Assembly (NCBI GenBank): GCA_903896925.1
Contig: CAITZM010000134.1
Coordinates: 33,765 to 97,764, forward strand
DNA: 64,000 nt
DNA from: an uncultured Lentisphaerota bacterium
GTDB taxonomy: Bacteria > Verrucomicrobiota > Kiritimatiellia > CAIQIC01
Direction of reading: 5' to 3'
Part shown: positions 3,001-54,736 of the stretch, in pieces
How the letters are laid out: each line of letters starts with the position of its first letter
Position numbering within the stretch: position 1 is the first letter of the stretch
Made by a program: the position numbers and the translations under genes
The notes under the pieces: generated by a model
The model's input: only the letters and a program-made list of their open reading frames with translations
What the model was told of the DNA's origin: nothing
The model's database searches: none

Positions 3001-3528
3001 CGCGTTGCCGTCCCGCGCCATCGCGCGCGCCTGGTTCTGCGCGTAGGCCGCCTGTTCCTCCTGCCCCAGCGTTTGCAGGTGCTGGCGCAGTTTCTGCGTG
3101 GACTCCGGCGTCGGCTCCGGCTGGAACGCCCAGCGTTCCTTCGAGTGCCGCTCCCGCAGGGCGGTTTTCTCCTTGCGGAACTCCTGCAACAGATCCTTGT
3201 AGGTCTGCGCGTTCGCGTCCAGCTTGCTCGTAAGCTGCTGATATTTCCGCTGGAGCTGTTGCTCCTCCACCTGGTGCCGCTTGAGCAGGTCGGCGAGCGA
3301 GGCATCCGCCGCGCGGGCCGCGCCGAGCCACAGCCCCGCGCCCAACAGCAGGGCCGCGGCGATGCGGCCGGCATAAGTTTTCCAGGGGCTGGAAGCCCGG
3401 GGTGCGTGTTCTTCCAAGGATTGGGTCAACTCAGCCTGGCCTCTTCCAGTCCTTGGGGAAAGCGCGGGAACGTTTCCCCGAACTTTGGACAACAACCCCG
3501 CAGTCCTGCGACCACACCACGTGTTCAT
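1..3528 (-). CDS. Giant secreted hypothetical protein (>=1176 aa, runs off the left edge); coiled coil, Pro/Ala-rich linker, putative nucleotidyltransferase-like motif
   Basis: Hand translation gives an open frame from ATG 3528 (GGAG upstream) to position 1; the ORF track misses it because there is no stop in the window. Signal-like stretch RIAAALLLGAGLWLGAARA-AD; motif NTGGKKNPTNVKGDVDV at about 1372-1422. Start position uncertain. Confidence 0.85.
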   Translation of the reverse strand, partial: MNTWCGRRTAGLLSKVRGNVPALSPRTGRGQAELTQSLEEHAPRASSPWKTYAGRIAAALLLGAGLWLGAARAADASLADLLKRHQVEEQQLQRKYQQLTSKLDANAQTYKDLLQEFRKEKTALRERHSKERWAFQPEPTPESTQKLRQHLQTLGQEEQAAYAQNQARAMARDGNALKAEVVDAYMPPDVAAKKLDAYAERIQAGHLGLSPAEETAALRNIESQKQHYEQAQVNRQAQLAANKKTADNTSSQLRNVQNEFGEPINAAFGLNRQTGATGGVTEGNPAADSTAHIVGKLEGQPTHGRVDDMHSWRYIRNDSGQIALDANRQPVKEVIVDPTPERVKEIKDAYNKRMGRSQTPAATTSAQTGERGTVARAGLETVERGGPGRLSLSGSAGAVNAGLPTAQPAAVAAGGAPPPPPGGPHQPTASSAAPGRPSGIPLEKALVPVTRAYEPGTLPPERSLVVQGSTPPPGRAAAPRGNTSLPRTPDTIYVTPDGTALTSHDQIVPVREKAIALPDRSGTALLNSKQPKIDLLKGMQPPAPAAVAGKPPFYDGTGTPIAFDGKPVVQPGKQLVDRSGRPLSSQGEAATAGAQGQLVDRYGRPLASSAQAPAQGQGVAAGGSPQLPNKELIRRQQAELEALSTRMNDLARNNPQLTSDPRAAEQLQNYHRAMADQIREKYAAQDNRIRDLKASGNAKDLYNTGGKKNPTNVKGDVDVTAASDKVAYEQMKDWKAAGKDVQDFPHKVVNNTDNMTVWRPDRALTERNKVGDRDAFATEGGKAGTGVKDAIKNDTGWVLDDQKKFLYGQADGDLKEMAKAVSKAGERMGLDKQNPELYRKLKDLQGYRGPDEAGVVKYGSEARTAGNDLADLRNKMKLEMDKAMQLAQDATPVKTKVSGPLNKTPSDNRVNSSNARAKAEDIALQEGLNARGSDWSGSKAEVRDAVRANFKDALDAQTRQRPFTSDDEVKRQNRASSDDIQASRDRVRDMARSEKGEIGTERGTRFDVMTKPTGNGANIELPDGTIKKPSSLLDGGRSSFVKPVAEPIRGAFDKLGILAMAGAAAQATVEKQGEAADQGRSHLRGDEMLDVVDKASGFQPWRNNYYDALNQAAQEKVRAGTPDSKLDTALTVTKAMGKGTYDTMKQMGDGMINEPARQAIQEEEEAARRERREPNY
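3380..3490. repeat. Array of 4 degenerate TTCCA-N5-TGGAA palindromes, 32-bp period
   Basis: Units start at 3380 (ttccaggggctggaa), 3412 (ttccaaggattgggt), 3444 (ttccagtccttgggg), 3476 (ccccgaactttggac). Confidence 0.75.
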
Positions 3529-3628
3529 GGCAACAACTCCTGCGTTTTAAGCGCTCATTCCGGCTTTATTACCCAATCCTACGACTTGATATTCCGCCCG
3601 CGACCGGCCACTTTCAAGTGACTTTTCT

Positions 3629-4231
3629 TCACAAGCCCTGCCGCTGCCGCAGCGCCTTTTCGATGCGTTCGAAGAGGTCGCGATAGGCCTCCGGCAGCTC
3701 CACTTCCACGGCCTGCTCCGCCGGCGGTGCGTGGATGAGCACGCTGCGGCCGCGCCGGTACCACGTGCCATTCTGTTCCTCATGGTAGGACATCGCCGGC
3801 AAGGTGCCGCGCCGGGTCATCACGATCCGCTGGCGGGTCTGGTTCCCGGCGGCCCACGGCTCGGTGTGGATCACGAGTTCCTGCCAGCGCGCCCACTTCT
3901 TCGTCACGTCCTCGTGCAGCCGCGTGGTTTCCTGCCGCGTTCGCAGGTTCAGCTCGCGCTCGTCCTCCGGGCCCAGCGACTCGTTCTTGCGCGCGGTGGT
4001 GGCGCGGATCAGCCCCGCGGGCTTGTCCACCACCTCCAGCTGCCAGCCGGTATCCTGCAGGACGGCGATGGTCGCGGCAAAAACCAGGTCCGTTTTTCCG
4101 GTGAAGATCAACGTCTGCATGGTTGCCCGATCGGCGGGCGGCAGCACCTTGGGCGCCGGCAGGCGGCTGGGCGGCAACTGGCAACCGGTCGCCCCCAGCG
4201 CCACAACGGCCAGCACAATGAGTTTATTCAT
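3629..4231 (-). CDS. Hypothetical lipoprotein (200 aa)
   Basis: Lipoprotein signal MNKLIVLAVVALGATG-C; 15 bp downstream of the FN3 lipoprotein, same strand. Confidence 0.85.
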   Translation of the reverse strand: MNKLIVLAVVALGATGCQLPPSRLPAPKVLPPADRATMQTLIFTGKTDLVFAATIAVLQDTGWQLEVVDKPAGLIRATTARKNESLGPEDERELNLRTRQETTRLHEDVTKKWARWQELVIHTEPWAAGNQTRQRIVMTRRGTLPAMSYHEEQNGTWYRRGRSVLIHAPPAEQAVEVELPEAYRDLFERIEKALRQRQGL

Positions 4232-4246
4232 GGGACTTGCTCCGGC

Positions 4247-7200
4247 TTACTTTTTCGGTTCGGGCGCCGGCACGGCCGGCGGCGTCAGGTCCAGCGGCGC
4301 GCCCCGCGCGCTCTCCAACTTCTCCGCGTCCACCGCGCTGACCAGCACCCGGAGGCCCTTGCCGACCGCTTCGGCCGTCAGCATGTACGCATTCGTCTCC
4401 ACGGTCGCCAGAGGGTCGGCGCCAAACAAGGTTTTTTTCCAGACCTTGTAAACCTTGATGTCCGGCGAGGGCGAAGCCGCCCACGTCAGCGTGACCTGGT
4501 TTTCCTGCCACTGTGCCACCAGGTTTTGCGGTGCGACCGGCAGCGGCCGCGAGGCCCCCGCAGCCACCTCGCTCCAGACGCTCTCCAGTTCGTCGCGATC
4601 CACCGCCTTGACGCGGTAGCAGCGCGCCTCGCCGTCGCTGAGCCCGTCTTCCACGGCGCTCACCCGCTCGTCGGCCGTGGCGCTGACGCGCGTCACTTCG
4701 CGAAAGCGGCTGGCAGGCGCGGCGGCGGCCTCGAGCACGTAGCAGGCGATATCGCTCTCGGGGTTCGCGCGCCAGGCGAGCCGCACGGCCTTCGGTACGC
4801 CCGCCGTCGCCGCCAGGTCGCGTGGCACGGCCGGCGCGGGCTTCGTGGTGGCCGCCGCCTCGGCCGAGGGTGCGGAGCGCACCTGGGCCGTGTTGAACGC
4901 GACGACCCGATAGCGGTATTCCGCCCGGTCCTGCAACTGGCCGAGCCCCTTGCGTGCGCCGCCCCGGTCCATGAAGGAAACCGTCTCGCGGCCGGCGACG
5001 CTGGCGAGGTTGGTGCAGGCGCTTTCGCCGGGCGCCTGCCGCAGGATGTCGTAGCCGATGACCTTCTCGTCGGGCGAGGCCTCCCACGCCACGGGCACCT
5101 CGCGCGGCCGCGCGCTCTGTGCCTTGACCCCGGTCACCGCCGGCGGCGCGCCGCGGGTCACGGCCTGTGCGCTCTCCGAGTCCGCGCTCTCCGACGCGAC
5201 CGCGTTGACGGCGCGGATCCGGTAGGCGTAGGCGCGCTCGTCGCCGAGGTTGCCGGGGTCACCGCCGCCGTCGAGGAAGCTTGTCTTCGCGCGCCCTTCG
5301 ATGCGCGCGATCTTCTCGAACGCCCGGTCGGGTGCGTCGCGGCGGAAGAGGTCATAGCAGACGACGTCGGCCTCCGGGCTGGGCGACCACGTCAGCGGTA
5401 CGCAGCGCACCTCGGCGTTTTTCGCGGCCAACGTGCGCACGACCGCCGGCGGCGGGCGTGTTGTCACGTCCACCGGAGCGGAGGCCGGCCCGACCGCGCC
5501 GAGCTTGTTGACCGCGGTGATGCGGTAGAGATACTTCGTGCTGTCGCGCAGTTCGGACTGGGGCGTACCACCCTCCTGGAAGACGGGCTCCTTCACCTCT
5601 GCCAGCTTCTTGAACTGCTCCGGGGTGGCGGCCTCGGCGCGTTCCACGATGTACTTCGCCACCCATTCCGCCGCCGAGGGCTTCCACATCAGGCGCACCG
5701 CGCGCGAGGCGCACGCCTCCGCCTCCACGCCCGCGGGCGGCGCGGGTGGCGGCTGCGTCGTCACGGCGACCGGACGGGACGGCGCGCCGACCGAGCCCAC
5801 GCGGTTGATGGCCGTGAGGCGATACAGGTATGGCGTGTTGTCCTGCAGGCCGGTCTTTTCCGTGCCGCCCTCCTCGAAGACAAGGTCTTTGACCTCGCCG
5901 AGCTTGACGAACTTATCCGGCGCGCCGGCCTCGGCGCGCTCGACGATGTATTTCACCACCCCCTCGCTCGGCGAGGCGTCCCACGTCACTTTCAGTTTGC
6001 GGGGCGCGCTCGGCCCGGCCTTGAGCTGGGGTGGCGGCTCTGGCGGTGGAGCGGTCAGCGCCTTCGCCGGCGCGCTGGCGTCGCTCTCGCGGCCGTTTGC
6101 CGCCAGCGCCACGAGCCGGTAGAAATAGGTTTTCGTATCGCCCAGCGGCGCCTGGGCGAGCCCGGTATCGCGATATTCGCCATCCCCGGGCGAAACCTTG
6201 GCCACGATGCCAAAGGGTTCGTCGGCGGCATCGGCGCGCTCGAGCCGGTAGTGCTTCGCATTGTCGTCCGGCTTGTGCCAGCGCAGCACCACTTCGCGCA
6301 GGCCGTTGGTCGTGGCGGTCAGCGCCTGGGGTACCGGCGGCGGCGGCTCGTCGAGTTCCAGCGGCACGCCCGGCAGGCTCTCCAGCCCGTCGGCTTCGAC
6401 CATCGTCAAGGTGACGACCAGTCTTTTCCCGACATCGCCAAAGCGCAGCACGAATTCCGGCTTCGCAGTCTCGGCGAGAGGCTCTTTGCCGCCTTTTTTC
6501 CAGACGCGGTAGGTCGTGACATCCTTCTGTGGCGGGGACCAGGCGAGCTTGATCTCGCCGGGGCTGTACTCCACGGCGACCTTGTCGGGCGCGGGCGGCA
6601 GCGGCTTGGTGTGCGCCGCGACCGGCACGGACCATGGGCCGGGGAGCGCGGTGTCGTTGAGCGCCCTGACGCGATAGCGGTAGGTGAAATCGTCCTTGAG
6701 CGCCCCGAGTCCGGCCGCGTCCTTGGCTGTGCCGCGGTCCGCATAGGCCACCGTGTCGCGTCCGGCCATTTTGATGAATTCCAGGAACGGCCCATCGGCG
6801 CCCTCGCTGCGCTGGATTTCATAGGTCAGCACCGTCACGTCCGGCGTGGCCTGCCACGCCAGCCGGACCTCGCGCGGCAGACTGGAGGCGGCCTGCACAC
6901 CGGCGACTTGCGGCGGCGCACCGCGCGTCTCCGCCTGCAAGGTGACCGCCTGCACACTCGCCACGCCGACCGCATTGATGGCGCGGATCTGATAACGATA
7001 GGCGGTGCCATCGGGGAGCTTTTCGTCCTTCCAGGTCGTCGTGTTGCGCCCTTGCACCGTGGTGAGCGGTGCGAACTTGTCATCCTTGTCCTTTGCGCGG
7101 ACGATGTCGTAGCGCACCACGTCCTCCTCCGGGCTGGCCTTCCACGTCAGCGGCACGCACCGCAGCGCGCCGGCGGCGGCGGCGGCCTGCACCGGCAGCG

Positions 7201-8500
7201 GCGGCGGCCGCGTCGCGACCTGCACCGGCGCGGCGGGCGCACTCTGCGCGCCGACGCGGTTGACCGTTGTCACGCGGTAGGCATAGGTCGCGCCGTCCGC
7301 CGTGGCGGTCGTGTCGCGAAATTCCGCCTTCTCCGCCGTCCCGGCCTTTTCGAACGCCGCCTTCGCGCCCGGCCCGGCGCGTTCCACCAGATAATGGGCG
7401 ATGCCTTCCGCCACGGCAGGCTGCCATACGAGTTGCACCACGCGCGCCGCGGGCGCCGTCACGCGCAGGTTGGTCGGCGGCTCCGGCGGCGGGGCGGTCA
7501 GGCTCTCCTTGACCTGCGACGGCGCACTCTCGACCCGGTCGGACAGGGCCACCACCCGGTAGAAATAGGCCGTGCTGTCCTGCAGCGGTTTCCCGCGTTC
7601 GCCGGTGTCGTGAAACTCGCGTTTCTCCGCGGCGATCGTCCCCAGCGCGGCGAACGGCCCCTTGACCGTGGTCGCGCGCTCGATGCGATAGTCGAGCCCG
7701 CGCTCCTTCGGCACGCCCCAGGTCAGCATGACTTCGCGCAGGCCCAGGTCGGAAACCTTGAAATCCGGCGGCGCGAGCAGCGGCGCGCTGGAGGCCCGGG
7801 CCGGCGCCGGCTCGCCCGCGCGCCCGGTCGGGGCGGGGGTTGGGGCGGAGTTGCGGCCGACGGGCTGTTCTGGTGGCGCCCCGTCGCCCTTGCGCCCCGC
7901 GCCCGCGGCCACCGGCTGCACGTGCCAGTGCGTGTACAGGCCGGCGACGATCTCGTGCGCCACCGCGCGCGCCTGCTCCGGCAGCGTCAGGGCTTTGGAG
8001 TCGGCGCGTTTCGCCAGGTCCGAGCTCCACATCACCTTGCCGCTGGCGCAGTCGATCAGCCGCGCCGTGATGCCGACCACCGGGTAGGGATGCCCGCTCT
8101 GCGCCACCGTCGCGTATTCGTCCACGGTGCCGATCACCACGCCCTCGGCACCCAGCATGTTGCCGACCTCTGCCGCGCGCGCGGCGGACAGGCCCGCCAG
8201 CGAGAGTTCGGATTCGCTGAGCACCTTGGCCATCTGGCCGCGCTCAACGAGTTCGTAACGGCCGGCCCGGAGCATCTCGGTGACGAACAGGTCGGAGATC
8301 GAGGTGCCGATGAGTTCCGTCTGCGCCTTGAACGGCATGATGGCGATCTTCCTGATGGGGGAGGGCACCGGCGCCACGTAGATATTGGCGCGCGACGCCA
8401 CATCGCGGAAATAGGCGTCCTGCTCCGTCGTGGCGCAACCCGCCAGCCAGAGCGCGAGCGCCGCGCCGCACACCACCTGCTCAACTCGTGACTTCATCAT
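4247..8500 (-). CDS. Lipoprotein with N-terminal CsgG/HfaB/LpoB-like domain and 12 fibronectin type III domains (1417 aa)
   Basis: Lipobox LAGC; KIAIMPF...YELVERGQM...LGAEGVVIGTV...ARLIDCASGKVMW is CsgG-like; repeated VxLxW...YxIER...YxYRVxAxN...S blocks; GGAGG RBS. Confidence 0.9.
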   Translation of the reverse strand: MMKSRVEQVVCGAALALWLAGCATTEQDAYFRDVASRANIYVAPVPSPIRKIAIMPFKAQTELIGTSISDLFVTEMLRAGRYELVERGQMAKVLSESELSLAGLSAARAAEVGNMLGAEGVVIGTVDEYATVAQSGHPYPVVGITARLIDCASGKVMWSSDLAKRADSKALTLPEQARAVAHEIVAGLYTHWHVQPVAAGAGRKGDGAPPEQPVGRNSAPTPAPTGRAGEPAPARASSAPLLAPPDFKVSDLGLREVMLTWGVPKERGLDYRIERATTVKGPFAALGTIAAEKREFHDTGERGKPLQDSTAYFYRVVALSDRVESAPSQVKESLTAPPPEPPTNLRVTAPAARVVQLVWQPAVAEGIAHYLVERAGPGAKAAFEKAGTAEKAEFRDTTATADGATYAYRVTTVNRVGAQSAPAAPVQVATRPPPLPVQAAAAAGALRCVPLTWKASPEEDVVRYDIVRAKDKDDKFAPLTTVQGRNTTTWKDEKLPDGTAYRYQIRAINAVGVASVQAVTLQAETRGAPPQVAGVQAASSLPREVRLAWQATPDVTVLTYEIQRSEGADGPFLEFIKMAGRDTVAYADRGTAKDAAGLGALKDDFTYRYRVRALNDTALPGPWSVPVAAHTKPLPPAPDKVAVEYSPGEIKLAWSPPQKDVTTYRVWKKGGKEPLAETAKPEFVLRFGDVGKRLVVTLTMVEADGLESLPGVPLELDEPPPPVPQALTATTNGLREVVLRWHKPDDNAKHYRLERADAADEPFGIVAKVSPGDGEYRDTGLAQAPLGDTKTYFYRLVALAANGRESDASAPAKALTAPPPEPPPQLKAGPSAPRKLKVTWDASPSEGVVKYIVERAEAGAPDKFVKLGEVKDLVFEEGGTEKTGLQDNTPYLYRLTAINRVGSVGAPSRPVAVTTQPPPAPPAGVEAEACASRAVRLMWKPSAAEWVAKYIVERAEAATPEQFKKLAEVKEPVFQEGGTPQSELRDSTKYLYRITAVNKLGAVGPASAPVDVTTRPPPAVVRTLAAKNAEVRCVPLTWSPSPEADVVCYDLFRRDAPDRAFEKIARIEGRAKTSFLDGGGDPGNLGDERAYAYRIRAVNAVASESADSESAQAVTRGAPPAVTGVKAQSARPREVPVAWEASPDEKVIGYDILRQAPGESACTNLASVAGRETVSFMDRGGARKGLGQLQDRAEYRYRVVAFNTAQVRSAPSAEAAATTKPAPAVPRDLAATAGVPKAVRLAWRANPESDIACYVLEAAAAPASRFREVTRVSATADERVSAVEDGLSDGEARCYRVKAVDRDELESVWSEVAAGASRPLPVAPQNLVAQWQENQVTLTWAASPSPDIKVYKVWKKTLFGADPLATVETNAYMLTAEAVGKGLRVLVSAVDAEKLESARGAPLDLTPPAVPAPEPKK

Positions 8501-14949: not shown

Positions 14950-15207
14950 GTCAAAATCCTGGATCCGCGGCAGCGGGTCCGCGCCGGTGGCGGGGCCAGG
15001 GAACCCTTGGTCTTTCCCGCAGGAAAAACAATCCACGTGTTTCGCCCAAGCCCTGGAAACCCCGAAAAATCGGGCGTCGTATCAGCTGCGCGCACCGCCG
15101 GACGGCCCCGGACGGGGCAAATTCCGGGATTGCATTCTAGCCAGCGGGTGCTACAACAGCTCGGGCAGTAAATCCCGCCCCAACCGTTTTTCACGGAGAA
15201 AGAGAAC

Positions 15208-16101
15208 ATGGAAACAGAAGCGAGTACTGGCGTACCGGTCATCAGTGTGAAGCGAACCTCCACCCACAAGATCATCAACGATCTCGTCCAGCTGCAGGAA
15301 TTGCTCGTGGCGCGTGCGCAGCAGGTTGCCACCAATCCGCAGGCGCGTCTGGAGCAGCTCGAGCAGTCCATCCAGACCCTCTTCCAGTCGCTGCCGCCGG
15401 ACATTGCCGGGCGCTTCAAGCGCATCGAGGAGCGCGGTCCGCTCGCGATCGTGCCGATCGCCAACGGCATCTGCAGCGCCTGCGGCATGTCCCTGCCGGT
15501 CAGCCTGGTCCACACCGTGCACGCGGCCGAGAGCCTCTACCAATGCCCGAGCTGCGGGCGCATGATCTATTACCGCGAGGCGTTTGCGCGGCGCGTCCGC
15601 CAGCCCACCGCCAAGCGCGGTGAGCCGCCGAAAATCGGCATCGAGCGCTTTTCGTCGCAGGAGCTGATGATCCCGCAGCTCGTCTCCGGCGAACGCGACG
15701 ACGTGATCCGCGAGCTGTGCATGAAGCTGGAGCACGAAGGCTTCGTGGACGACGGCAACAAGCTCTACGAGGAGGCGCTCAAGCGCGAGGCGATCGTCGG
15801 CACCGGGGTTGAGAACTGCCTCGCCTTCCCGCACGTCCGCGGCGTTGAGGGCGGCGGCCTGACCCTGGCGCTGGGCCTGTCGGCCAAGGGCGTCAAGTTT
15901 GGCAGTAGCTCCAAGGGCACGAGCAAGATCATCTTCTTCATGGCCATCCCGACCGCGGCCAGCGCGTTCTACCTCAAGCTGCTCTCCGGCCTCGCGCGGA
16001 CCTTCGAGAAGGAAGAGAACCGCAAGAAATTGTTGGAAGCGACCACGCCGGAGAAGCTGTGGAAGACGCTGCTCAAGCTCACCAAGACCACGATCCAGTG
16101 A
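15208..16101 (+). CDS. C4 zinc-ribbon / PTS EIIA (Ntr/Fru-type) fusion protein
   Basis: CSACGM...CPSCGRMIY zinc ribbon after a coiled coil; KREAIVGTG..LAFPH EIIA motif. Confidence 0.85.
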   Translation: METEASTGVPVISVKRTSTHKIINDLVQLQELLVARAQQVATNPQARLEQLEQSIQTLFQSLPPDIAGRFKRIEERGPLAIVPIANGICSACGMSLPVSLVHTVHAAESLYQCPSCGRMIYYREAFARRVRQPTAKRGEPPKIGIERFSSQELMIPQLVSGERDDVIRELCMKLEHEGFVDDGNKLYEEALKREAIVGTGVENCLAFPHVRGVEGGGLTLALGLSAKGVKFGSSSKGTSKIIFFMAIPTAASAFYLKLLSGLARTFEKEENRKKLLEATTPEKLWKTLLKLTKTTIQ

Positions 16102-17765: not shown

Positions 17766-18899
17766 CTACACCGCACACACGCTGCGGATGATGTCCAAGG
17801 CGCGCGCGAGGTCCGTCTCGCTGTGCGCGCGGGTGATCGACAGCCGCAGGCGCGCAGTGCCCTCCGGCACGGTCGGCGGGCGGATGGCGATGGCGAGCAG
17901 GCCCGCCGCGCGCAGCTTGTCCGCGACCTCCAGCGCGCGCGCATTCGCGCCGACCTGGATCGGGATGATCTGGCTGGCCGACTGCATCACATCGAAGCCC
18001 GCGGCGCGCAGTTGATCACGGAACGCCGCCGCGTGCCGGAGCAGCTCCGCGCCCCAGCCTGGATTTTTCTCCAGCACATCCAGCGCGCCCAGCGCCGCGC
18101 CCACCGCGGCCGGCGGCGGCGCGGTCGTGTAGATGAAGGCCCGGGCGCGGTTGATCAGCAGTGCCCTCATCGCTGTTGAGCACGCAACGAAGCCGCCGTA
18201 GCCGCCGAGCGCCTTGCTCAGGGTGCCCATCGAAAGATTCACTTTCGACTCGAGCTGGTGTTCGCGGATCAGCCCGCTGCCGCCGGGGCCGAAGACGCCG
18301 GTGGCGTGCGCCTCATCCACCAGCAGCAGCGCGCCGTGCCGTTCGGCCACGGCCGCGAGTTCCGGCAGCGGCGCCACGTCGCCATCCATGCTGAACACCG
18401 ACTCGGTGACGACCAGCTTGCGGCCCGCGCCCGAATGTTTTTGCAGCAGCTCGTCGAGGTGCTGCGTGTCGTTGTGGCGGAAGCGACAGAGTTCGGCGCG
18501 GGAGAGGAGCGCCGCATCCATCAGGCTCGCATGCGCCAGACGGTCGGCGAAGACCGTGTCCCCGCGCCCGACCAGCGCGCCGAGGATGCCGAGGTTGGCC
18601 AGGTAGCCGCTGCCGAAGAGCAGGGCGGCGGGATAGCCCTTGAGCCGCGCGAGCCGCGCCTCCAGTTCCTCGTGCAGCGGCAGCGTGCCGCTGACGAGCC
18701 GCGACGCCGTCGCGCCGGCACCGGCCGCGTGCAACGCGCGCTCCGCGGCGGCGATCACGTCCGGATGCTGTGCGAGGTTCAGGTAGTCGTTGCTGGAAAA
18801 GTTGAGCAGCCCCGGCGGCGGCGTGACGGCGCGGCGAAAGCGCTGCGCCCGCCGCAGCTCCTCCAGTTCCGTTTCAATCCATTGTTCGCGTAGGTCCAT
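17766..18899 (-). CDS. bioF: 8-amino-7-oxononanoate synthase
   Basis: NFSSNDYL, SRLVSG, SGYLAN, ESVFSMDGD, VDEAHATG, GTLSKALG, IRPPTVP. Confidence 0.95.
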   Translation of the reverse strand: MDLREQWIETELEELRRAQRFRRAVTPPPGLLNFSSNDYLNLAQHPDVIAAAERALHAAGAGATASRLVSGTLPLHEELEARLARLKGYPAALLFGSGYLANLGILGALVGRGDTVFADRLAHASLMDAALLSRAELCRFRHNDTQHLDELLQKHSGAGRKLVVTESVFSMDGDVAPLPELAAVAERHGALLLVDEAHATGVFGPGGSGLIREHQLESKVNLSMGTLSKALGGYGGFVACSTAMRALLINRARAFIYTTAPPPAAVGAALGALDVLEKNPGWGAELLRHAAAFRDQLRAAGFDVMQSASQIIPIQVGANARALEVADKLRAAGLLAIAIRPPTVPEGTARLRLSITRAHSETDLARALDIIRSVCAV

Positions 18900-18930
18900 G
18901 TCGCGCCGAGCCTAAACTTTTCCCGCAGTT

Positions 18931-18976
18931 TTCCAAGGCTCGGAAACAATAACGTGGAACTTTCCAGACCTTGGAA
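18931..18976. repeat. Two TTCCA-N5-TGGAA palindromes, 31 bp apart
   Basis: ttccaaggctcggaa (18931) and ttccagaccttggaa (18962), just upstream of bioF. Confidence 0.7.
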
Positions 18977-19177
18977 GTCCCAGCGTGATAGCATCCGGAG
19001 AAGGGAAGCGATACGCGCCGGCATATGGACAGCACTCCCGCTGGAGCGGTGTGCACCAAAGCGGACGCGCCTGTTGATCAGTGCCAGCCGGGCGACGGAC
19101 ACACCGTCTCATACCTGTACAGGTGTGCGATGGGGTAGTGGAACTACAGCAGACCGTGCAGCAGCTTGGAGCGATGA

Positions 19178-28669: not shown

Positions 28670-28715
28670 GCAGACGCAAATCTACGCACTCCGCGGTCCC
28701 GCGCAGCGCGCGCTT

Positions 28716-32000: not shown

Positions 32001-32647
32001 CCGAGTTTCAGTGGATCCTCCAGCGCTTCGACCAGACCGGCGGCGGCCCGCTCGAGGAGGCCGCGCCCGGCACGGTCGTCCGCGTCGGCGGGCTGGTGGC
32101 CAGCTTCCAGAAACGCTTCACCAAGAAAACTCAGGAGCCGATGGGCATTTTCCGGCTCGAACGCCTCGACGGCGCGCTCGAGGCCGTCGCGTTCCCGTCC
32201 ACCTTCACCACCTACGGCGTCTATCTCAAGGACGACGCGCCGGTGCTCGTCTGCGGCCAGCTCGGCCGCTCCGAACTGCCCGGCCAGCAATCGCAGCAGC
32301 TCAAGCTGACCGTGCAGGAAGTCTATCCGCTCGGCGATGTGCCGCGCCTGTTCACCGAGACCGTGAGCGTCCACCTGCCCGAGCAGTTGGCGGACCCCGC
32401 GCGCGTGCAGCAGCTCAAGGCGATCATCCGCCAGCATCCCGGCCAGACCCCGCTGCACATTGTCATCATGCTGGGCAGTGGTGAGAAAATCTACGTCAAC
32501 GCCCATAGCGCGATGCACGTCCTGCCCAGCAAGGCGCTCATCCATGCCATCGAGCAGTTGCTGGGCGAGGGCAGCCTCTACATCGCCCCCCGCGCCGTCA
32601 CCTGCCTCAAGCCTCCTCCGCCCCGCCGCTGGGAGCGCAAGGACTGA
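29093..32647 (+). CDS. dnaE: DNA polymerase III subunit alpha
   Basis: FVHLHFHTEYSLLD PHP domain; GPGRGSGAGS; PDFDIDF; KMDFLGL; YGFNKSH. Confidence 0.98.
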   Translation: MGKNIPFVHLHFHTEYSLLDSACKVKKVMKRAVELEQNTLAITDHGNLYGAVDFYKEAKGAGLKPILGCEVYVAVGDMHDRKSIEGSTKQPTNHLVLLAENEQGWANLIRLVSMAHLEGFYYKPRIDKELLAKYSKGLIGLSSCLKGEPAELCAAGDIAGAKRAAGQYAEILGKDNYFIELQNHGLPEQLKANVGLREVAKALHLPLICTNDVHYIQQEHHEAHAVLLCLQTQSKLSDPGRMHYHGDQFYMKSGEEMQALFPGEPELLARTVEIGQRCNVDLRLGKETHFPIYITPDGSTQKDFIVQVAHAGLRKRYNMADCLHPASELERQVMDRFNYELGVIERLKFINYFLVVWDFIHHAKLQGIPVGPGRGSGAGSLIAYAIGITNIEPLRFNLLFERFLNPERISWPDFDIDFCQRRRGEVITYVREKYGEENVAQIVTFGTLGPKTVIRDIGRVLEIPLGECDRLAKMVPDDPKIDDLEKALAQNPEFKQICERDENAKRIMKYARVLEGLARNPGVHAAGVVIGEKPLVEILPLARSKDKEIITQFEMSPLEATGLMKMDFLGLKTLTVIQDALDYVERNHGVKLDMDTLPLDDAKTYELLGRGDAVGVFQLESGGMRDLLRRMASNRIEDLIALIALYRPGPMQFIDSFINRKNGLEAIEYPHPLLESILKETYGIIVYQEQVQQAAVTLAGFSLGQGDILRRAMGKKKKEEMDKMRDKFVEGCIATNKIPRAQASAIFDTIDKFASYGFNKSHSAAYAIVSYQTAYLKAHYPVEFMSALMTSEIGNPDKLTNFINEARAMEVEILPPSVNESDLHFTPTGQKIRFGLAGIKNVGEGAVEEIVRIRKEGGPFKGLVDFCNRVDGQRSNKKVLESLVRCGAFDFTGQLRGRLFGGIDQAMGGAASEQRDRRAGQISLFGMLGGDATQSAVDADLPAGETWTESQLLAGEKELLGFFISGHPLTEFQWILQRFDQTGGGPLEEAAPGTVVRVGGLVASFQKRFTKKTQEPMGIFRLERLDGALEAVAFPSTFTTYGVYLKDDAPVLVCGQLGRSELPGQQSQQLKLTVQEVYPLGDVPRLFTETVSVHLPEQLADPARVQQLKAIIRQHPGQTPLHIVIMLGSGEKIYVNAHSAMHVLPSKALIHAIEQLLGEGSLYIAPRAVTCLKPPPPRRWERKD

Positions 32648-34491: not shown

Positions 34492-34588
34492 GCGGCAGAG
34501 CCGCCGCGATGCAGCCGGTTGGCAGCTCAACATCACCACCCGCGGAGCAATGTGTTCTCCAAGGCAGGAAAGAAGACCCGTTGCTTTT

Positions 34589-35293
34589 TCAAGCCATGGA
34601 AAGGGACGGGTGGCGGGCGTCAGGCGCTGGCGCGCCAGATGTGCTGTCCACGAGTCCGGCGCCGATGGCGTAGCGGGTGAGACTGGCGGTGTCGAAGATG
34701 TTGAGCTTGCGCGTGAGGGCCCCGCGGTGTTTTTCGACCGTGCGGATGCTGAGGCCCAGTTCAGGGGCGATCTGTTTGTTCGGCAGGCCCTCGGCGACGA
34801 GTTGGAGCACCTCGACCTCGCGCTCCGTCAGGCAGGCCTCGCGATAGACGCAGGTGCCGCAGTGGTCGGCGCACTGGTGCGGAAGGCGGCAGGCAATGCT
34901 GGGGCTGAAGGCTTTTCTTCCCTGATGCACGTCGCGGATGGCGGCGCACACGGTGCGCGCCGACGCTTGCTTGAGCAGATAGCCGGCGATGCCCAGCGCG
35001 GTCGCCTGCTGGATGTAGCGGTCCTCGCTGCGTGCGGTGAGAATCAGGATCCGGGTGGCGGGACAAAGTTGGCGGATCTGCCGGGTGGCTTCGACCCCAT
35101 TGAGCCGCGGCATCAAGATGTCCATGACGAGCACGGCGGGCAGGAGTTGCTGGGCCAGAGCCACGGCTTCGCGGCCGTTGGCGGCTTCGCCGATGACCTC
35201 GATATCGGTTTCGGCGGCGAGCAGCGCGCGCAGCCCTTCGCGGACGACGGTGTGGTCGTCCGCCAGCAGGACGGTGATGCGGTTCGTAGCCAT
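34589..35293 (-). CDS. NarL/FixJ-family response regulator (REC + LuxR HTH)
   Basis: VLLADDHTVVREGL, MDILMP, LTEREVEVL...TVEKHR. Confidence 0.92.
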   Translation of the reverse strand: MATNRITVLLADDHTVVREGLRALLAAETDIEVIGEAANGREAVALAQQLLPAVLVMDILMPRLNGVEATRQIRQLCPATRILILTARSEDRYIQQATALGIAGYLLKQASARTVCAAIRDVHQGRKAFSPSIACRLPHQCADHCGTCVYREACLTEREVEVLQLVAEGLPNKQIAPELGLSIRTVEKHRGALTRKLNIFDTASLTRYAIGAGLVDSTSGAPAPDARHPSLSMA

Positions 35294-35453
35294 GTTTCCG
35301 GCGGTTTCAGCTCGTGTGGCAACGTCTGGCGCCGCCGGGGAGTCTAGACCGGTTCTCGCCGATGTCAAACCGGCGGGTGGTGGTAGTTCCCCTCATGGCG
35401 GAGCGCGGCGGGTGCCGTAGACTCAGATCGTTATGAAACGACAGGAAGAAAAA

Positions 35454-41565: not shown

Positions 41566-43464
41566 ATGAAGACAAGCGGAAACCGAGGGTTGCTGGGGTT
41601 GATCATGGCGGCGCTGCTTGGAGGTCATGCTGAAGTTCAGGCAGCCTACACCAATCTGCACGCATTTGCCGGCGGCGCGGGCGATGGCGCGGCAGCCGTC
41701 GGCGCGCTAACGCTGTCCGGCACGACGCTGTATGGCCTGACGTTCGGCGGTGGCGCCAGCAACGAAGGCGTGGTGTTCCAGATGCAGGCTGATGGCACGG
41801 GTTATACCAACCTGCACGCGTTCGCCGGCGGTGCGGGCGATGGTGCGGGCTCCTACGGTTCGCTGACGCTGTCCGGCACGACGCTGTATGGCCTGACGTT
41901 CGGCGGCGGCGCCAGCAACAAAGGCGTGGTGTTCCAGCTGCAGGCCGATGGTACGGGCTATTCCAACCTGCATGCGTTCGCCGGCGGCGCGGGCGATGGC
42001 GCGGCAGCCGTCGGCGCGCTAACGCTGTCCGGCACGACGCTGTATGGCCTGACCTCCGCCGGCGGCGTCAGCAACAAAGGCGTAGTATTCCAGCTGCAGG
42101 CTGATGGTACGGGCTATACCAATCTGCACGCGTTCGCGGACGGCGCAGGCGATGGCGCGGTATCCGTCTGCGCGCTGACGCTGTCCGGCACGGAGCTTTA
42201 TGGCATGACGTTTGGTGGCGGTGCCAGCAGCAAAGGCGTGGTGTTCCGGCTTCAGGCTGGTGGTACGGGCTATACCAACCTGCACGCGTTCGCCGGTGGC
42301 GCGGGCGATGGCGCACACCCCTATATTGGCACGGCGCTGACGCTGTCCGGCACGACGTTGTATGGCCTGACGTTCATGGGCGGCGCCAATAACAAAGGCG
42401 TGGTGTTCCAGCTGCAGGCTGATGGCACGGGCTATACCAACCTGCATGAGTTCGCCGGTGGCGTGGGCGATGGCGCGTTACCCTCCGGCACACTGACCTT
42501 GTCCGGCACGACACTGTATGGCATGACGTCCGCCGGCGGCGCCAGCAACGGCGGCGTGGTGTTCCAGCTGCAGGTTGATGGTTCGGGATATACCAATCTG
42601 CATGAGTTCGCCGGCGGCGCGGGCAATGGTGCAGCACCCTTCGGCGCGCTGACGCTGTCCGGCACGACGCTGTATGGCATGACGTCCGCCGGCGGCGCCA
42701 GCAACAAAGGCGTGGTGTTCGCGTTGACGGTCCCCACTACGGCGAACTTCACGCTGCGGCCTGCGCAGCTCTTTTTCCAGCATGCCGACGGCCGGTTGGC
42801 GAGCTGGCTGCTGGCCACAAACGGGACCTACCAATCCGGACGCCCCTTGGGTTCGGCGGGCAATTGGCAGTTGATGACGGCCGGCGATGTGGATGGCGAT
42901 GGCCTCAGCGACCTGCTCTTCCAGAATCCCGCTGGCGACCTCGCCTGCTGGCTGCTCGACACCAACGGTGCTGTCCGCCATGTCATCAACTGGGGCCAGG
43001 TCGGTGCCTGGAGACTGCGTGCGGCGGCCGACTATGCTGGCGAAGGTCACGCCCAGCTCTTCTTCCAGAATCCCGCGGGCGACCTCGCCTTCTGGCGCAT
43101 CAGCACCAATGGTATTTTTCAAAGCTCGGAACTCCTGGCGCACGCCGGCGGCTGGCAGCTCCGCGCGGCCATGCCACACGCCCGCGGTGTCGGGGCCGAT
43201 CTCTGCTGGCAGACCGCCGAGGGGCAGGTCGCCATCTGGCGGCAGGCATACGGCGGCGCCATCACCGTGCAGTTCCTCGGCGGCACCGGGGGCTGGGTTC
43301 TGAGCGGCGCGGTCGATGTGGATGGCGATGGTGAGGGCGACCTGCTCTGGCAGAACGGCGACGGCAGGATCGGGGGCTGGCTCCTAGCTAGCAACGGTAT
43401 CCCACGCGCCGCCAGTTCCTGGGGCGACGCAGGAGTCTGGAAGCTCAAAGCCGCCGGCCGCTGA
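41566..43464 (+). CDS. Secreted Gloeo/Verruco (GloVer)-type tandem-repeat protein with C-terminal FG-GAP-like domain
   Basis: Signal peptide; 7x YTNLHxFAGG.GDG....LTLSGTTLYG.T.GG...GVVF; GDVDGDG..DLLxQN repeats; AAGGA RBS. Confidence 0.88.
   Translation: MKTSGNRGLLGLIMAALLGGHAEVQAAYTNLHAFAGGAGDGAAAVGALTLSGTTLYGLTFGGGASNEGVVFQMQADGTGYTNLHAFAGGAGDGAGSYGSLTLSGTTLYGLTFGGGASNKGVVFQLQADGTGYSNLHAFAGGAGDGAAAVGALTLSGTTLYGLTSAGGVSNKGVVFQLQADGTGYTNLHAFADGAGDGAVSVCALTLSGTELYGMTFGGGASSKGVVFRLQAGGTGYTNLHAFAGGAGDGAHPYIGTALTLSGTTLYGLTFMGGANNKGVVFQLQADGTGYTNLHEFAGGVGDGALPSGTLTLSGTTLYGMTSAGGASNGGVVFQLQVDGSGYTNLHEFAGGAGNGAAPFGALTLSGTTLYGMTSAGGASNKGVVFALTVPTTANFTLRPAQLFFQHADGRLASWLLATNGTYQSGRPLGSAGNWQLMTAGDVDGDGLSDLLFQNPAGDLACWLLDTNGAVRHVINWGQVGAWRLRAAADYAGEGHAQLFFQNPAGDLAFWRISTNGIFQSSELLAHAGGWQLRAAMPHARGVGADLCWQTAEGQVAIWRQAYGGAITVQFLGGTGGWVLSGAVDVDGDGEGDLLWQNGDGRIGGWLLASNGIPRAASSWGDAGVWKLKAAGR
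41647..42720 (+). repeat. Seven coding tandem repeats of 156 bp (one unit 162 bp)
   Basis: Units start 41647, 41803, 41959, 42115, 42271, 42433, 42589. Confidence 0.9.
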
Positions 43465-48031: not shown

Positions 48032-49004
48032 GTTGACGGCCTGCTTTTTTTAATTTTCCGCCCCAGGGAAGCCCGGCCTGTTTCCCCGGCCGGGAGCCGG
48101 GGAAGAGATCGTCGAGGAAATATTCCACCACCGTGGCGCCTTCCGGCGGCGAGATCGCCAGGTCGGGACTGACCTCGATGATCCAGAATTTTCCGCGCCG
48201 CGCATCCACCAGAAAGTCGATGCCGACCATCGGCAGGCCGTACAGCCGGGCGACGCGCTGCGCCACGCGGCGGAGTGACGGCGTGACCTCGGCGGTGATG
48301 ACCGCGGCGTCGCCGCCGGTGTGATAGTTTGAGGTCAGCCGCACCTGGACGCGCACTCCGGCGGACGGCACCTCGGCGAGGTCGTGCCCCAGCCGCGCGA
48401 GTTGACGGCGCGTCTCGGTGTCGAGCGGGATGCGGTGGCTGGAATCTGCGGCGCACGCGCGGCGGTTCTGGCGGCGGATGAGCTGGGCCAGGGTGCGCCG
48501 GCCGTCGCCGGTGACCGTCGCCGGCGTCCGCCGGATCGCCGCGACATACTTTCCTCCGACGAGGATCAACCGCTGGTCCTCGCCGCTGACGCACTGTTCG
48601 AGCACGACCTCGTCCTCGAAGGTCTGTGCGCGGCGCACGGCGGCGCGCAGTTCGGCCGGCGTCCGCACATCCACGGCGACGCCGCGCCCGCCCCACTGCA
48701 TGCAGGGTTTCACGACGATGTGCCGGTGTCGCGCCAGGAATTTTTCCGCCGCGGCCCACGTGCTGAACTTGAGCTGGGCGGGCACCGGGAAGCCGTGCCG
48801 GCGCAGGAACTGGTTGGCGGCGTGCTTGTGGTTGGCGAGGAAGAACGTCGCGGCGCCGACGCGGTCGGTCAGCGCGTTGAAACAGCGGACGGCGGCACGG
48901 CCGCGGCGGAGTTCGAAAACCGGCTGGCTCGGGTCGAGCACGGTGACGCGCAAGCCGCGCGCGCGGGCGGCACGGGTGATCGTGGTGGTGTAGACCGAGT
49001 TCAT
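48006..49004 (-). CDS. Stand-alone ATP-grasp ligase (cyanophycin synthetase/GshF-like ATP-grasp domain)
   Basis: IVVKP...GRGV, VLEQCVSGEDQR, RTPATVTGDG..TL..LI, SNYHTGG, GIDFL, IIEV; start reassigned to ATG 49004. Confidence 0.82.
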   Translation of the reverse strand: MNSVYTTTITRAARARGLRVTVLDPSQPVFELRRGRAAVRCFNALTDRVGAATFFLANHKHAANQFLRRHGFPVPAQLKFSTWAAAEKFLARHRHIVVKPCMQWGGRGVAVDVRTPAELRAAVRRAQTFEDEVVLEQCVSGEDQRLILVGGKYVAAIRRTPATVTGDGRRTLAQLIRRQNRRACAADSSHRIPLDTETRRQLARLGHDLAEVPSAGVRVQVRLTSNYHTGGDAAVITAEVTPSLRRVAQRVARLYGLPMVGIDFLVDARRGKFWIIEVSPDLAISPPEGATVVEYFLDDLFPGSRPGKQAGLPWGGKLKKAGRQLDNALTVP

Positions 49005-54300: not shown

Positions 54301-54420
54301 CGGAGCGAGCGCCAGACGCACCGCGAATGTCGCCGCCACCATGGCTGTCGCGAAGACATAAGGCCACAGCCGCCGTCCAAGCTGGCGCTGCTGACCGAGT
54401 TCTGTTCCGGGCGATGCCAT
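51310..54420 (-). CDS. DUF4118-like membrane sensor + 4 PAS hybrid histidine kinase/receiver
   Basis: N-terminal TM bundle; PAS repeats; QKMEAVGQLAGGVAHDFNN; NLALNARDAM; GKGTGLGL; REC; alternative start 54441. Confidence 0.92.
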   Translation of the reverse strand: MASPGTELGQQRQLGRRLWPYVFATAMVAATFAVRLALAPVCGSRLMLNLFTLPVLLCAYFGGLGPGLLSAVMVTLSVIFFLPSGFHFGSLATSDAIMMAMFVVTNLTVLVLVEALHRVRRRLEKTVAGQEQAAAALRESEAHYRLLAEHTEDFVSVHDAQERRLFISPSYYRRTGWTPEELQNSPWDARLHPEDVPAIQQARAANRAGQTTLLEHRIRCRNGTWLWIESRSKPILGADGRMQQLVIWSHDITERKRAEEALDEERQLLRTLINSLPDLIFTKDMAARFIISNTAHVALMGVPDEAALAGKTVLDLHPEELARGYYEDDLRVMRTGQAVINREELVQDHAGARRWFLTIKMPLRDHTGKITGLVAICRDITERRKTDQALRENERLLREVIDLVPHHIFAKDREGRYLFVNRAGSVCYGKEPQELVGHLELEFSRNQEQTAAFLRDDQEVIASGQTKFIPAEPITFADGSVHWLQTTKMAFVPPGATERAIMGVAVDITERKQAEQALIASEEKFHRIAANIDDVLYSVDAVTREFLYLSPAFELLLGYALADVQRMGGRRAFLAQVIQDGKFTEQERFMDALQAFQPVSQADRWETWWRCKDGSLKCLEDHWIAVYDGDRLVATEGVLRNVTERKRLEAQVQQAQKMEAVGQLAGGVAHDFNNILQSIFGFTDILLADTPPATRHHGDLLEIQKAAERAAGLTRQLLAFSRRQMITPTVLDLNSVVSNMHKMLHRLLGEDIRLATELAADLPRIKADAGQIEQIIMNLALNARDAMPHGGRITLTTARVTLTPEDVRFIADGRPGQFVRLSLADTGTGIAPDVLPHIFEPFFSTKGPGKGTGLGLSVIYGIAQQHNGWVNVFSELGHGTAFKLYLPAYAGAEDVAEPAAPRAAPPRGHGERILLIEDEPEIRGLSLRALQTAGYSVQAAGTAAEGQALFAREQGRFDLVFSDVVLPDQNGITTVEQFLRQKPGLAVLLCSGYTDERSRWHIIAEKKFPFLQKPYPAAELLQTIHAILDARPLPPA

Positions 54421-54689
54421 AAAAAACCTCAAGTCCAACATCACCCCTCGCGGAACTTTACTCGCCCACTGGCTCCGGTACAAGGCCGGGGAAAAAGCCA
54501 CGTCCGGTTGGCGGAGCCCGTCCGCGGTGTCGCTTTATGTCGTGCACAGCTCGCGCGGCCGGATCCGGGTGGTGTGTCGGTCCCGGGAATCAAGGCGACG
54601 GATGAGGCGGGACTCGGGCGGTGACGGTGGTCCCTGGTATCCGGTGCGGTGCGGCTGCCTCCCAGACCCGCCCTGTCAGTTGCCAACCT

Positions 54690-54736
54690 GGCCAAGGCTT
54701 GGAGCCGCCGGCAGGGCCGGCTTCCAAGCCTTGGCA
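54690..54736. repeat. Two TTCCA-N5-TGGAA-like palindromes, 32 bp apart
   Basis: ggccaaggcttggag (54690), ttccaagccttggca (54722), just past the gyrA stop. Confidence 0.7.

Follow-up and report, generated by a model that had tools for sequence, protein, structure and literature searches.

Phased arrays of a 19-bp palindrome, a probable family of miniature non-autonomous repeats in Kiritimatiellia

Results

Palindrome arrays in a 64-kb window

Kiritimatiellia are common polysaccharide degraders in guts, sediments and lakes, and few of them have been cultured. The 64-kb stretch of DNA analysed here (the window) derives from the 7.22-Mb genome of an uncultured member of this class (G000; a fragmented assembly of 191 contigs) and carries, among other genes, dnaE, gyrA, gyrB and gltX, together with short, scattered arrays of a palindrome. 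A sequence-only reading of the window had singled out these arrays, describing copies of TTCCA-N5-TGGAA at about 32-bp spacing. The exact motif occurs twice in the window against an expectation of 0.05, and with up to two mismatches there are 36 matches, compared with 13.5 ± 4 after shuffling (shuffle maximum 24). Units were scored in bits by a 19-bp weight matrix, each unit starting at the coordinate of that reading minus 2. On this scale four of the arrays that it named score as groups, and a fifth has lost most of one partner.

The leftmost array (3378..3492) has four units, at 3378, 3410, 3442 and 3474 (spacing 32/32/32), whose scores decay rightwards (20.3/12.8/12.5/7.0 bits); it sits at the 5' end of a long minus-strand open reading frame, 1..3528, which reads through it. 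Two units at 18929 and 18960, 31 bp apart (26.0/21.4 bits), form the array 18929..18978, ~30 bp upstream of an aminotransferase gene (17766..18899, minus strand; Pfam PF00155). Three units at 28714, 28746 and 28778 (spacing 32/32; 21.4/19.9/13.1 bits) make up the array 28714..28796, which lies 45 bp past the stop codon of gene 28130..28669, with dnaE (29093..32647) ~300 bp downstream of it; the sister species G003 has an orthologous array in phase with it (L130 184-265), the spacers having diverged. The doublet 34555..34603, with units at 34555 and 34585 (spacing 30; 10.9/21.1 bits), is situated between the convergent genes 32818..34491 (plus strand) and 34589..35368 (minus strand), both of which have a Pfam match.

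Other arrays persist as remnants. Between a histidine kinase gene and gyrA, the decayed doublet 54688..54738 retains one unit at 54720 (15.0 bits), its left partner at 54688 keeping only the inner CCAAGGCTTGG (<6 bits); the same intergenic region of G003 has three strong units. The divergent gyrB–gltX intergenic region (59890..59990) also holds three strong units in G003, of which G000 keeps only TTTTCAAGGCCTGTCGGAAT in the alignment. At 48054..48072 lies a doublet relic, one degenerate unit of 11.9 bits, and alignments place a second 31-bp period in G003 that is missing in G000. This relic had been listed among several weaker copies, and its orthology with a strong doublet of the sister species gives it independent support; the remainder of that list is without such support, namely the intergenic unit 15042..15060 (11.6 bits), before gene 15208..16101, and the units at 43473 (7.5 bits), 51292 (6.6 bits) and 54477 (7.5 bits). 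Three strong single units were absent from the list, each inside a called gene: 4435..4453 (21.7 bits) in the 3' part of a large fn3/CsgG-domain gene (4247..8500, minus strand; Pfam), 43115..43133 (18.0 bits) in gene 41599..43464, and 63837..63855 (18.1 bits) in gene 63019..64203 (minus strand).

Rfam returned no match at the gathering score in the window, and three of the window arrays, when folded as single strands, gave unremarkable z-scores (−2.6, −1.0 and −1.4). Contigs from four lake metagenome runs over window positions 17500-36500 have no listed indel or joint at the arrays and are uninformative on polymorphism; those of run X1 span the arrays at 18929 and 28714 with no differences.

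A palindrome repeated every three helical turns

Across the genome the repeat unit, TTTTCCAAG-S-CTTGGAAAA, is 19 bp long and perfectly palindromic, in a 9-1-9 layout. In the profile of 418 exact sites its ends consist only of T-runs and A-runs, and positions outside are at background. TTCC-N7-GGAA is found at 710 sites in G000 (1420 counting both strands), and the control gaps N4, N5, N6, N8, N9 and N10 give both-strand counts of 314, 158, 298, 396, 234 and 372, respectively. Scanning the first 2 Mb with the matrix yielded 256 matches of at least 16 bits, compared with 7 in a third-order Markov simulation.

The phasing of these matches is sharp, and the arrays proved a stronger feature than the sequence-only reading had claimed. 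The distance from one match to the next is 30, 31 or 32 bp in 38, 167 and 252 cases, with a mean period of 31.44 bp (n=468), equal to 3 × 10.48 bp per helical turn; below 140 bp almost no other distance occurs, apart from 123 double calls on adjacent positions (distance 1). The genome holds 438 arrays (342 doublets, 76 triplets and 20 quadruplets), none of them longer; with G002 included, arrays reach at most four to five units. One relative, G014, additionally shows a 22-bp (two-turn) spacing. Spacers in G000 are 13 nt (316) or 12 nt (175) long, GC-rich and mostly mutually unrelated, even inside a single array (mean distance 8.06 within arrays and 8.20 from one array to another), in agreement with the earlier remark that they are not copies of each other. 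Most spacers are unique even in G002, a genome with near-perfect units.

Arrays favour intergenic DNA, not promoters

Called genes cover 81% of G000, while 364 of the 438 arrays (83%) are intergenic. Within tandem intergenic regions 140 arrays lie nearer a gene start and 128 nearer a gene end, which amounts to no promoter bias. Forty-five arrays are wholly within called genes, where they are tolerated because the palindrome is without a stop codon in all six frames. A sufD-like gene (PF01458) contains an in-frame array insertion, FQGLETETASFSKDWK, in three of five orthologues (those of G000, G003 and G002), the insertion being absent in G001 and G013.

A regulator had been among the binding proteins envisaged for the arrays. 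In G013, G014, G016 and G024, which represent four other genera, dnaE has no array upstream, and a conserved regulon was rejected on that ground. The location of arrays relative to genes is not conserved from one family to another, and a gene-specific regulon is therefore unlikely; the lack of promoter bias likewise argues against a regulator of particular genes.

Modules are copied, shed and eroded

In G000, 57 of the 316 13-nt spacers have a neighbour with at most two mismatches, against 10.6 expected after column permutation, and an excess of near-identical spacers is also seen in G003 (9/100 versus 0.6) and G002 (2/53 versus 0.2). Fifteen pairs of palindrome–spacer–palindrome modules have a common spacer (at most one mismatch) within unrelated flanks, and in most of them similarity ends at or near the outer palindrome edges. 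The module copied is a palindrome, a 12–13-nt spacer and a second palindrome, ~51 bp in all, with further 31–32-bp periods making longer arrays; its ends are terminal inverted repeats of each other because both are one identical palindrome. Recent copy bursts in G000 were considered and rejected, extended similarity being limited to ~15 array pairs. Two similar arrays in G014 were set aside as evidence of mobility because they sit within a longer duplicated segment, in which 234 bp of flank are 98.7% identical. Among viral contigs, only 25 stretches of the collection carry a pair, several of which are unrelated tandem repeats.

Comparison of the sister species documents turnover. Of 37 G003 arrays with syntenic flanks in G000, 15 retain all units in phase, 11 retain some and 11 none. 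Clean indels between the two genomes measure 54 bp (two units), 73 bp (three units) and one 31-bp period, and no target-site duplication is visible at these three, a small sample in which each event may be a gain or a loss. Such presence/absence differences, the same-spacer modules in unrelated flanks and the in-frame sufD-like insertion uphold the earlier suggestion of a self-propagating element. In retained orthologous arrays identity falls from 84% at outer unit positions to 75% at inner ones, 69% in spacers and 65% in flanks, figures that are biased by conditioning on retention; in one four-unit array compared between G002 and G000, units are ~80% and spacers ~30% alike. The better preservation of units than of spacers at orthologous arrays could reflect host-level selection on units. 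A coding-region pair (G003 L294:17644 and G000 C119) differs by clustered substitutions with zero indels, and fits either in-situ gain or decay.

One architecture, three dialects

The widened pair pattern is matched by 79 of 151 sampled Kiritimatiellia genomes. In a sample of the phylum 28 of 201 genomes match, all but one of them in Kiritimatiellia; the other sampled classes are nearly empty. The TTCCA pair pattern occurs in 39 of 41 relatives and its reversed control in 0. The architecture is constant while the half-site varies by lineage among three dialects, TTCCA, TTCCG and TTACG. TTACG pairs number 93-118 in four species of genus g5 and 0 in G024, and TTCCG pairs number 35-184 in four genomes of family f13 and 0 in G002. 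Replacement is complete in G012, with 0 TTCCA pairs and 118 TTACG pairs. G002 holds 918 pairs, the repeat occurring about once per 5 kb in its sample, and in G251 and G241 many matches fall at contig ends, where the repeat may be breaking assemblies. Literature searches on the repeat sequence and on Kiritimatiellia palindromes or inverted repeats found no description of the arrays, so that, as far as these searches reach, they are undescribed, as the sequence-only reading had supposed; in PMC10783764, Kiritimatiellia appear only in a Shine-Dalgarno table.

Candidate partner proteins

A co-distributed DNA-binding protein or transposase had also been anticipated, and neither of the two candidates tracks the arrays. 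G000 has one Y1_Tnp gene (148 aa, C43:37540-37875), and a single unit lies within 1.5 kb of it, ~600 bp off, where 1.4 are expected per 3.3 kb. At E≤1e-8 Y1 had no match in the array-rich genomes G002, G016, G020, G241, G265 and G007, and the array-less families f6 (9/13) and f20 (6/7) carry Y1. RAYT/Y1 was rejected as the mobiliser given this lack of co-distribution and of flanking arrays at the G000 gene, and our search for a mobilising enzyme, which followed the Y1_Tnp distribution, found none.

Lrp/AsnC was rejected as the binder on similar grounds. The single Lrp/AsnC homologue of G000 was not found in G137, G246 and G101, genomes of 95-97% completeness with 113, 123 and 126 pairs, and it is present in 7/7 genomes of the array-less family f9. 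Only 4 of 16 genomes (G012, G008, G036 and G018) have units upstream of their Lrp gene, so there is no consistent array before its own gene. The Lrp helix-turn-helix differs between TTACG and TTCCA species of genus g5, a comparison confounded by relatedness.

Discussion

We consider the arrays more likely than not to form a family of miniature, non-autonomous palindromic repeats that spans the class and is read by a putative oligomeric protein. Modules are copied mostly into intergenic DNA and sometimes in frame into genes, and arrays are gained, shed periods and decay between sister species. The fixed three-turn period combined with free spacer sequence suggests an oligomer that reads successive palindromes; contacting them on one DNA face, it would impose both the palindrome and the period, and it may either be the mobilising enzyme of the modules or belong to the host and make use of them. 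If only modules with intact, correctly spaced palindromes kept multiplying, near-consensus units would come to stand beside diverging spacers. The proposal of a binding array for a dimeric protein is thus retained in its geometric part (the 9-1-9 palindrome, the 31.44-bp period held class-wide and the free spacers), and it is this geometry that points to a putative binding protein.

Much of that geometry would also suit pure host binding sites, operators or architectural sites that arise and persist in place through selection, without a copying mechanism, and serve a nucleoid-associated or globally regulating oligomer. Such sites could be perfect dimer-type palindromes at a three-turn period and stop at four to five units, their orthologues could hold units in phase while spacers randomise, and a substitution-only difference, as at one coding-region pair, would be in keeping with them. 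We nonetheless judge this unlikely, as it sits poorly with identical 12–13-nt spacers within unrelated flanks, whole-array indels, the in-frame sufD-like insertion and genome-wide dialect switches inside one genus; promoter bias is absent (140 versus 128), location at particular genes is not conserved between families and the Lrp candidate fails co-distribution. Molecular drive without transposition, whether by uptake-signal-like dialects or by short-tract gene conversion, would drive near-matches in place towards a consensus that itself co-evolves with a single receptor or nuclease. It would accommodate the single dialect per genome at a time, completely replaced in G012, the near-perfect units beside unique spacers in G002, the retention of units while spacers randomise and the one coding-region case by substitutions only, but shared spacers and clean array indels require whole-module copying, and known uptake sequences do not, to our knowledge, form phased arrays; we regard it as quite improbable.

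A classical REP/REPIN system driven by RAYT (a Y1 HUH transposase) is a further candidate, and the high-copy, mostly extragenic palindromes, the doublet as copied unit and the 148-aa Y1_Tnp gene of G000 agree with it. However, the units are without a GTAG/CGTC tag, the Y1 gene has only the one unit nearby, and Y1 gave no match at E≤1e-8 in six array-rich genomes and is common in array-less f6 and f20, making this origin very improbable. Least credible to us is a CRISPR-like logic, in which an integrase would insert a short segment beside a palindrome and duplicate the palindrome to make mini repeat–spacer arrays: identical repeats, unique spacers of tightly fixed length and species that differ by exactly one period recommend it, yet the repeat is only 19 bp and the spacer 12–13 nt, the 438 loci have 2-4 units each, arrays are found inside genes and one spacer is seen at different loci.

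The preferred reading, of miniature repeats copied as modules and read by an oligomer, has a farther-reaching version that we hold possible, if somewhat doubtful. The arrays might belong to a class-wide protein–DNA system of an undescribed kind, whose oligomer (neither RAYT nor Lrp) reads palindromes three turns apart. Its half-site specificity would have changed on at least two occasions, TTCCA giving way to TTCCG and to TTACG, each time with genome-wide replacement of hundreds of arrays; far from mere junk, the arrays would be a co-evolving code of 'genome punctuation' or nucleoid organisation, which spreads by copying as well. With a host protein as partner, the arrays would amount to a chromosome-organising code of a new kind; with a transposase, they would be a REPIN-like system without RAYT. 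The fixed three-turn period with free spacers makes a clean, testable 'protein ruler' prediction, and the three dialects are natural specificity swaps for finding the protein. The repeat occupies a large share of Kiritimatiellia intergenic DNA, and arrays add peptides to proteins and therefore affect annotation, binning and gene-start calling.

Comparison with known systems

REP, BIME and REPIN elements with RAYT, found in Pseudomonas and Enterobacteria, are built on short palindromes of 20-40 bp. According to PMC3733652, REP palindromes carry GTAG or CGTC as a conserved tetranucleotide at one of their ends, and GTAG repeats are also reported from the verrucomicrobium Opitutus terrae. Our arrays resemble these elements as short palindromes in hundreds of mostly extragenic, clustered copies, with the doublet as copied module, a lineage-specific consensus and positions kept between close relatives. 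They are distinct from REPs, as had been asserted, being perfect 19-bp palindromes without such a tag, set in arrays of strict 31–32-bp period and free spacer sequence; one architecture extends across the whole class, and no co-distributed Y1/RAYT gene was found.

Rickettsia palindromic elements (RPE) are tolerated as in-frame palindromic insertions in protein-coding genes, which the sufD-like gene and the 45 arrays within called genes recall. RPE are ~100-150 bp long, belong to another lineage and sequence family and are not known to form phased arrays, unlike the units described here. MITEs such as Correia/NEMIS are tiny non-autonomous elements with inverted-repeat ends and variable interiors, as the array modules are; in the modules, however, each end is a complete palindrome and modules chain into phased arrays, with no target-site duplication seen at the three clean indels and no autonomous partner found among Y1_Tnp genes. 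The operator boxes of Lrp/AsnC (feast/famine) proteins are wrapped on an octamer at intervals of about three helical turns, and share with the arrays palindromic boxes of 5-N5-5 type, a ~31-bp period and up to four or five boxes. They differ from the arrays, which number in the hundreds without gene specificity; the single Lrp homologue does not track them and has no consistent array before its own gene.

CRISPR arrays are long and confined to few loci, with ~23-55-bp repeats and ~21-72-bp spacers. Both kinds of array repeat an identical palindrome at regular intervals, separated by unique, fixed-length spacers, but the short repeats and spacers of our arrays, their many small loci, some in genes, and the spacers common to several loci confirm that they are not CRISPR. 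The DUS of Neisseriaceae and USS of Pasteurellaceae offer one genome-wide motif per lineage, dialect switches and very high copy number, all of which the arrays share. We know of no uptake sequences that form palindrome arrays at fixed helical phase, whereas the palindromes of Kiritimatiellia are arrayed in exactly this manner.

Phased palindromes across the genome

A sequence-only reading of the window had noticed a TTCCA-N5-TGGAA palindrome recurring in short arrays. The window holds 2 exact copies of this pattern, against 0.05 expected, and 36 copies with at most two mismatches, against 13.5 ± 4 (shuffle maximum 24). Across the source assembly (G000; 7.22 Mb, 191 contigs, 64.6% G+C), in which the window is C134:33765-97764, there are 710 TTCC-N7-GGAA sites, and all other gaps from 4 to 10 are 3.6- to 9-fold rarer. 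A profile built over 418 exact sites defines the unit as TTTTCCAAG-S-CTTGGAAAA, a 19-bp perfect palindrome, and this profile recurs about 32 bp away on both sides. A weight-matrix scan and distance histogram, the check that the reading had proposed, gives a spacing peak at 30–32 bp in which 31 and 32 bp are commonest: successive matches lie 30 bp (n=38), 31 bp (n=167) or 32 bp (n=252) apart, with almost no other distances below 140 bp. The mean period is 31.44 bp, one third of which is 10.48 bp. Arrays in this genome comprise 342 doublets, 76 triplets and 20 quadruplets, with none longer. The phased arrays first noticed in the sequence-only reading are real. All arrays listed in that reading are present, the left unit of 54690/54722 being badly decayed, but several of its ‘weaker copies' have scores too low for them to be accepted on their own.

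Distribution and dialects

Pairs of TTCCA units are present in 39 of 41 relatives, covering 5 families and 16 genera within the order, with 1–743 pairs per genome; a reversed control pattern returned 0 in all. Exact TTCCA pairs number 75 in the source genome and 285, 743 and 371 in its congeners G001, G002 and G003, and the repeat family seems to be eroding in the source lineage. In a phylum sample, 28 of 201 genomes match and 27 of these belong to Kiritimatiellia, the other being G141 with 2 matches. Scanning named records with a three-unit pattern yielded only titles reading Kiritimatiellae/Kiritimatiellia, Verrucomicrobia(ota), uncultured bacterium, Lentisphaerae or Spartobacteria, the last two probably mislabelled; the array-bearing class is therefore Kiritimatiellia.

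Genomes seemingly without the motif often carry a variant half-site, and a search that allowed TT[AC]C[AG] as the half-site matched 79 of 151 class genomes, leaving 72 without arrays; the sample includes the closed genomes G282 and G305, each a single contig. This widened pattern was not found in families f6 (0/13), f9 (0/7) and f20 (0/7), nor did limited de novo searches in G054 (family f9) and G104 (family f15) turn up phased palindromes. Specific patterns confirm two dialects: four g5 species have 93–118 TTACG...CGTAA pairs, against 0 in their congener G024, and four f13 genomes have 35–184 TTCCG...CGGAA pairs, against 0 in G002 (g5 being a genus and f13 a family). The inner five bases and flanking runs also vary by lineage, with AATGATT in family f3, ATAGCGT in G014 and AAAAC...GTTTT flanks in family f58. 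The period is 31–32 bp in every lineage looked at, G014 having an additional one of 22 bp, equal to two helical turns. At L153:5400-5600 of G014, unit types ...CACGCTATGG... and ...CACACTGTGG... alternate, some neighbours standing 22 bp apart and others the usual 31 bp. Two f58 genomes, G251 and G241, keep the entire 31-bp period, spacer included, and one of their arrays carries an identical spacer three times. Many of their matches lie no more than about 100 bp from the end of a contig, a sign that long, uniform arrays may be interrupting the assemblies.

Genomic position and arrays within genes

The window is a normal chromosomal stretch that carries gyrA, gyrB and dnaE together with lipid A acyltransferase and two-component genes. 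Relative to genes called by our own crude codon-usage caller (4601 genes, 81% of the genome), 364 of 438 arrays are intergenic, 64 lie more than half within a called gene and 10 are at a contig edge. Of the intergenic arrays, 270 are in tandem, 63 in divergent and 31 in convergent regions, against a background of 1847, 493 and 396 such regions of at least 70 bp; in tandem regions the downstream gene start is nearer for 140 arrays and the upstream gene end for 128. Arrays therefore avoid coding DNA, with no evident bias towards promoters or terminators. Window positions 28821-28846 (G000:C134:62585-62610) hold a different and rarer palindromic repeat, ATCCCGGACTT-N4-AAGTCCGGGAT, frequently found inside GGGAAACATCCCGG...CCGGGATGTTTCCC and present in 5 exact copies in the genome; it adjoins a main-family array both here and at C119:54001.

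Forty-five arrays fall entirely inside called genes, with 60 nt or more to spare at either end, and their hosts include long genes with clear Pfam domains. None of the palindrome's six frames contains a stop codon, and the translations are FSKAWK, FPRLGK or FQGLE; because the arrays are stop-free, gene callers may be misled. A sufD-like gene (PF01458) encodes FQGLETETASFSKDWK in G000, G003 and G002, at a position occupied by a short loop in G013 and in G001, a member of the same genus; the insert is 16 residues long, and the G002 gene has 22 additional residues at this site. The difference is an array insertion, or a precise loss, inside a conserved domain. Similar behaviour is shown by Rickettsia palindromic elements. 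If an ATG at 3528 is taken as the start, a long ORF on the minus strand of window 1..3528 can be read, over 3374-3528, through a four-unit array. A clear signal peptide, GRIAAALLLGAGLWLGAARA, begins just after the array; no in-frame ATG or GTG precedes the signal peptide, and the sole in-frame TTG is inside a palindrome.

Turnover and copying of modules

We compared arrays with those of G003, the closest genome (87–95% nucleotide identity in genes). The 78 arrays in 899 kb of G003 include 37 with syntenic flanks in the source genome, which retains all units in phase at 15 of these, some at 11 and none at 11. Some of the differences are clean indels, namely a two-unit array (54 bp), a three-unit array (73 bp, flanks ~98% identical) and one 31-bp period at window 48054, and no target-site duplication is visible at any of the three. 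The window array upstream of dnaE has an orthologue in G003 whose units keep the phase although the spacers have diverged, and no array precedes dnaE in G013, G014, G016 or G024; array positions are not conserved across families. Many arrays of the source genome are decayed counterparts of strong G003 arrays, including those between gyrB and gltX and beside gyrA.

Most spacers are mutually unrelated. Among 13-nt spacers of the source genome, however, 57 of 316 have a neighbour within two mismatches, against 10.6 expected with columns permuted, and an excess of near-identical spacers is also present in G003 and G002 samples. Fifteen pairs of palindrome-spacer-palindrome modules, each about 51 bp long, share a spacer (at most one mismatch) between unrelated flanks. 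Similarity in most of them ends at or near the outer palindrome edges; in one it extends into the preceding spacer, which suggests a copy of a longer array. Spacers are no more alike within an array than between arrays, so local tandem duplication is not how arrays grow. The shared-spacer modules in unrelated flanks, the clean indels and the sufD-like insertion or loss directly support the earlier proposal of a self-propagating element.

Simple selfish copying does not account for the conservation of units over spacers, nor for one coding-region pair that differs by clustered substitutions and no indel. Over 15 retained orthologous arrays, identity is 84% at outer unit positions, 75% at inner ones, 69% in spacers and 65% in 40-bp flanks, a comparison biased by requiring both copies to score as units; in one four-unit array compared between G002 and G000, units are ~80% alike and spacers ~30%. 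These observations are compatible with host-level selection on the units, or with their short-tract conversion.

Candidate protein partners

The dimer-type symmetry of the unit and its helical phasing point to a putative palindrome-reading protein. The sequence-only reading had suggested a search for a co-distributed partner, and neither candidate that we followed, Y1/RAYT transposase or Lrp/AsnC, tracks the arrays. The single canonical Y1 gene of the source genome is not flanked by arrays, array-rich genomes such as G002, G016, G020, G241 and G265 gave no Y1/RAYT match at E≤1e-8, and Y1 genes occur in the array-less families f6 (9/13) and f20 (6/7). G014, G024, G028 and others carry multi-copy proteins of 330–360 residues whose N-terminal domain is Y1_Tnp, as many as 17 matches being present per genome, a length absent among the six Y1_Tnp matches of the source genome; this family is probably a separate insertion sequence.

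Operators of Lrp/AsnC are phased at about three helical turns, which made it a candidate. The one full-length homologue of the source genome was not found in array-rich G137, G246 and G101 but is present in 7/7 genomes of the array-less family f9, and only 4 of 16 genomes carry units upstream of their Lrp gene. In the TTACG-dialect genomes G008 (C21:69167-69243), G012 and G036, an array of 2–3 units stands 55–130 bp upstream of the Lrp/AsnC gene. Such an array was not seen in 11 other genomes, a twelfth (G029) offering 58 bp of upstream sequence only; given this absence elsewhere, the upstream array of the TTACG-dialect species is probably one inherited insertion.

Comparison with known repeat systems

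The repeat family works similarly to REP/REPIN or MITE elements and resembles RPEs in having arrays inside genes. It lacks two features that define REPs, the GTAG/CGTC tag and a cognate RAYT, and its size and layout are not those of a CRISPR, in keeping with both distinctions drawn from sequence at the outset. We found no description of the repeat in the searchable literature. GTAG repeats are reported in Opitutus terrae (PMC3733652) and differ from the Kiritimatiellia palindrome. What distinguishes the family is its strict three-turn ruler with free spacers, chaining into 2–5 units, class-wide persistence and dialect switches, and there is a fair chance that a putative protein partner could lift it beyond a variant of known repeat kinds.
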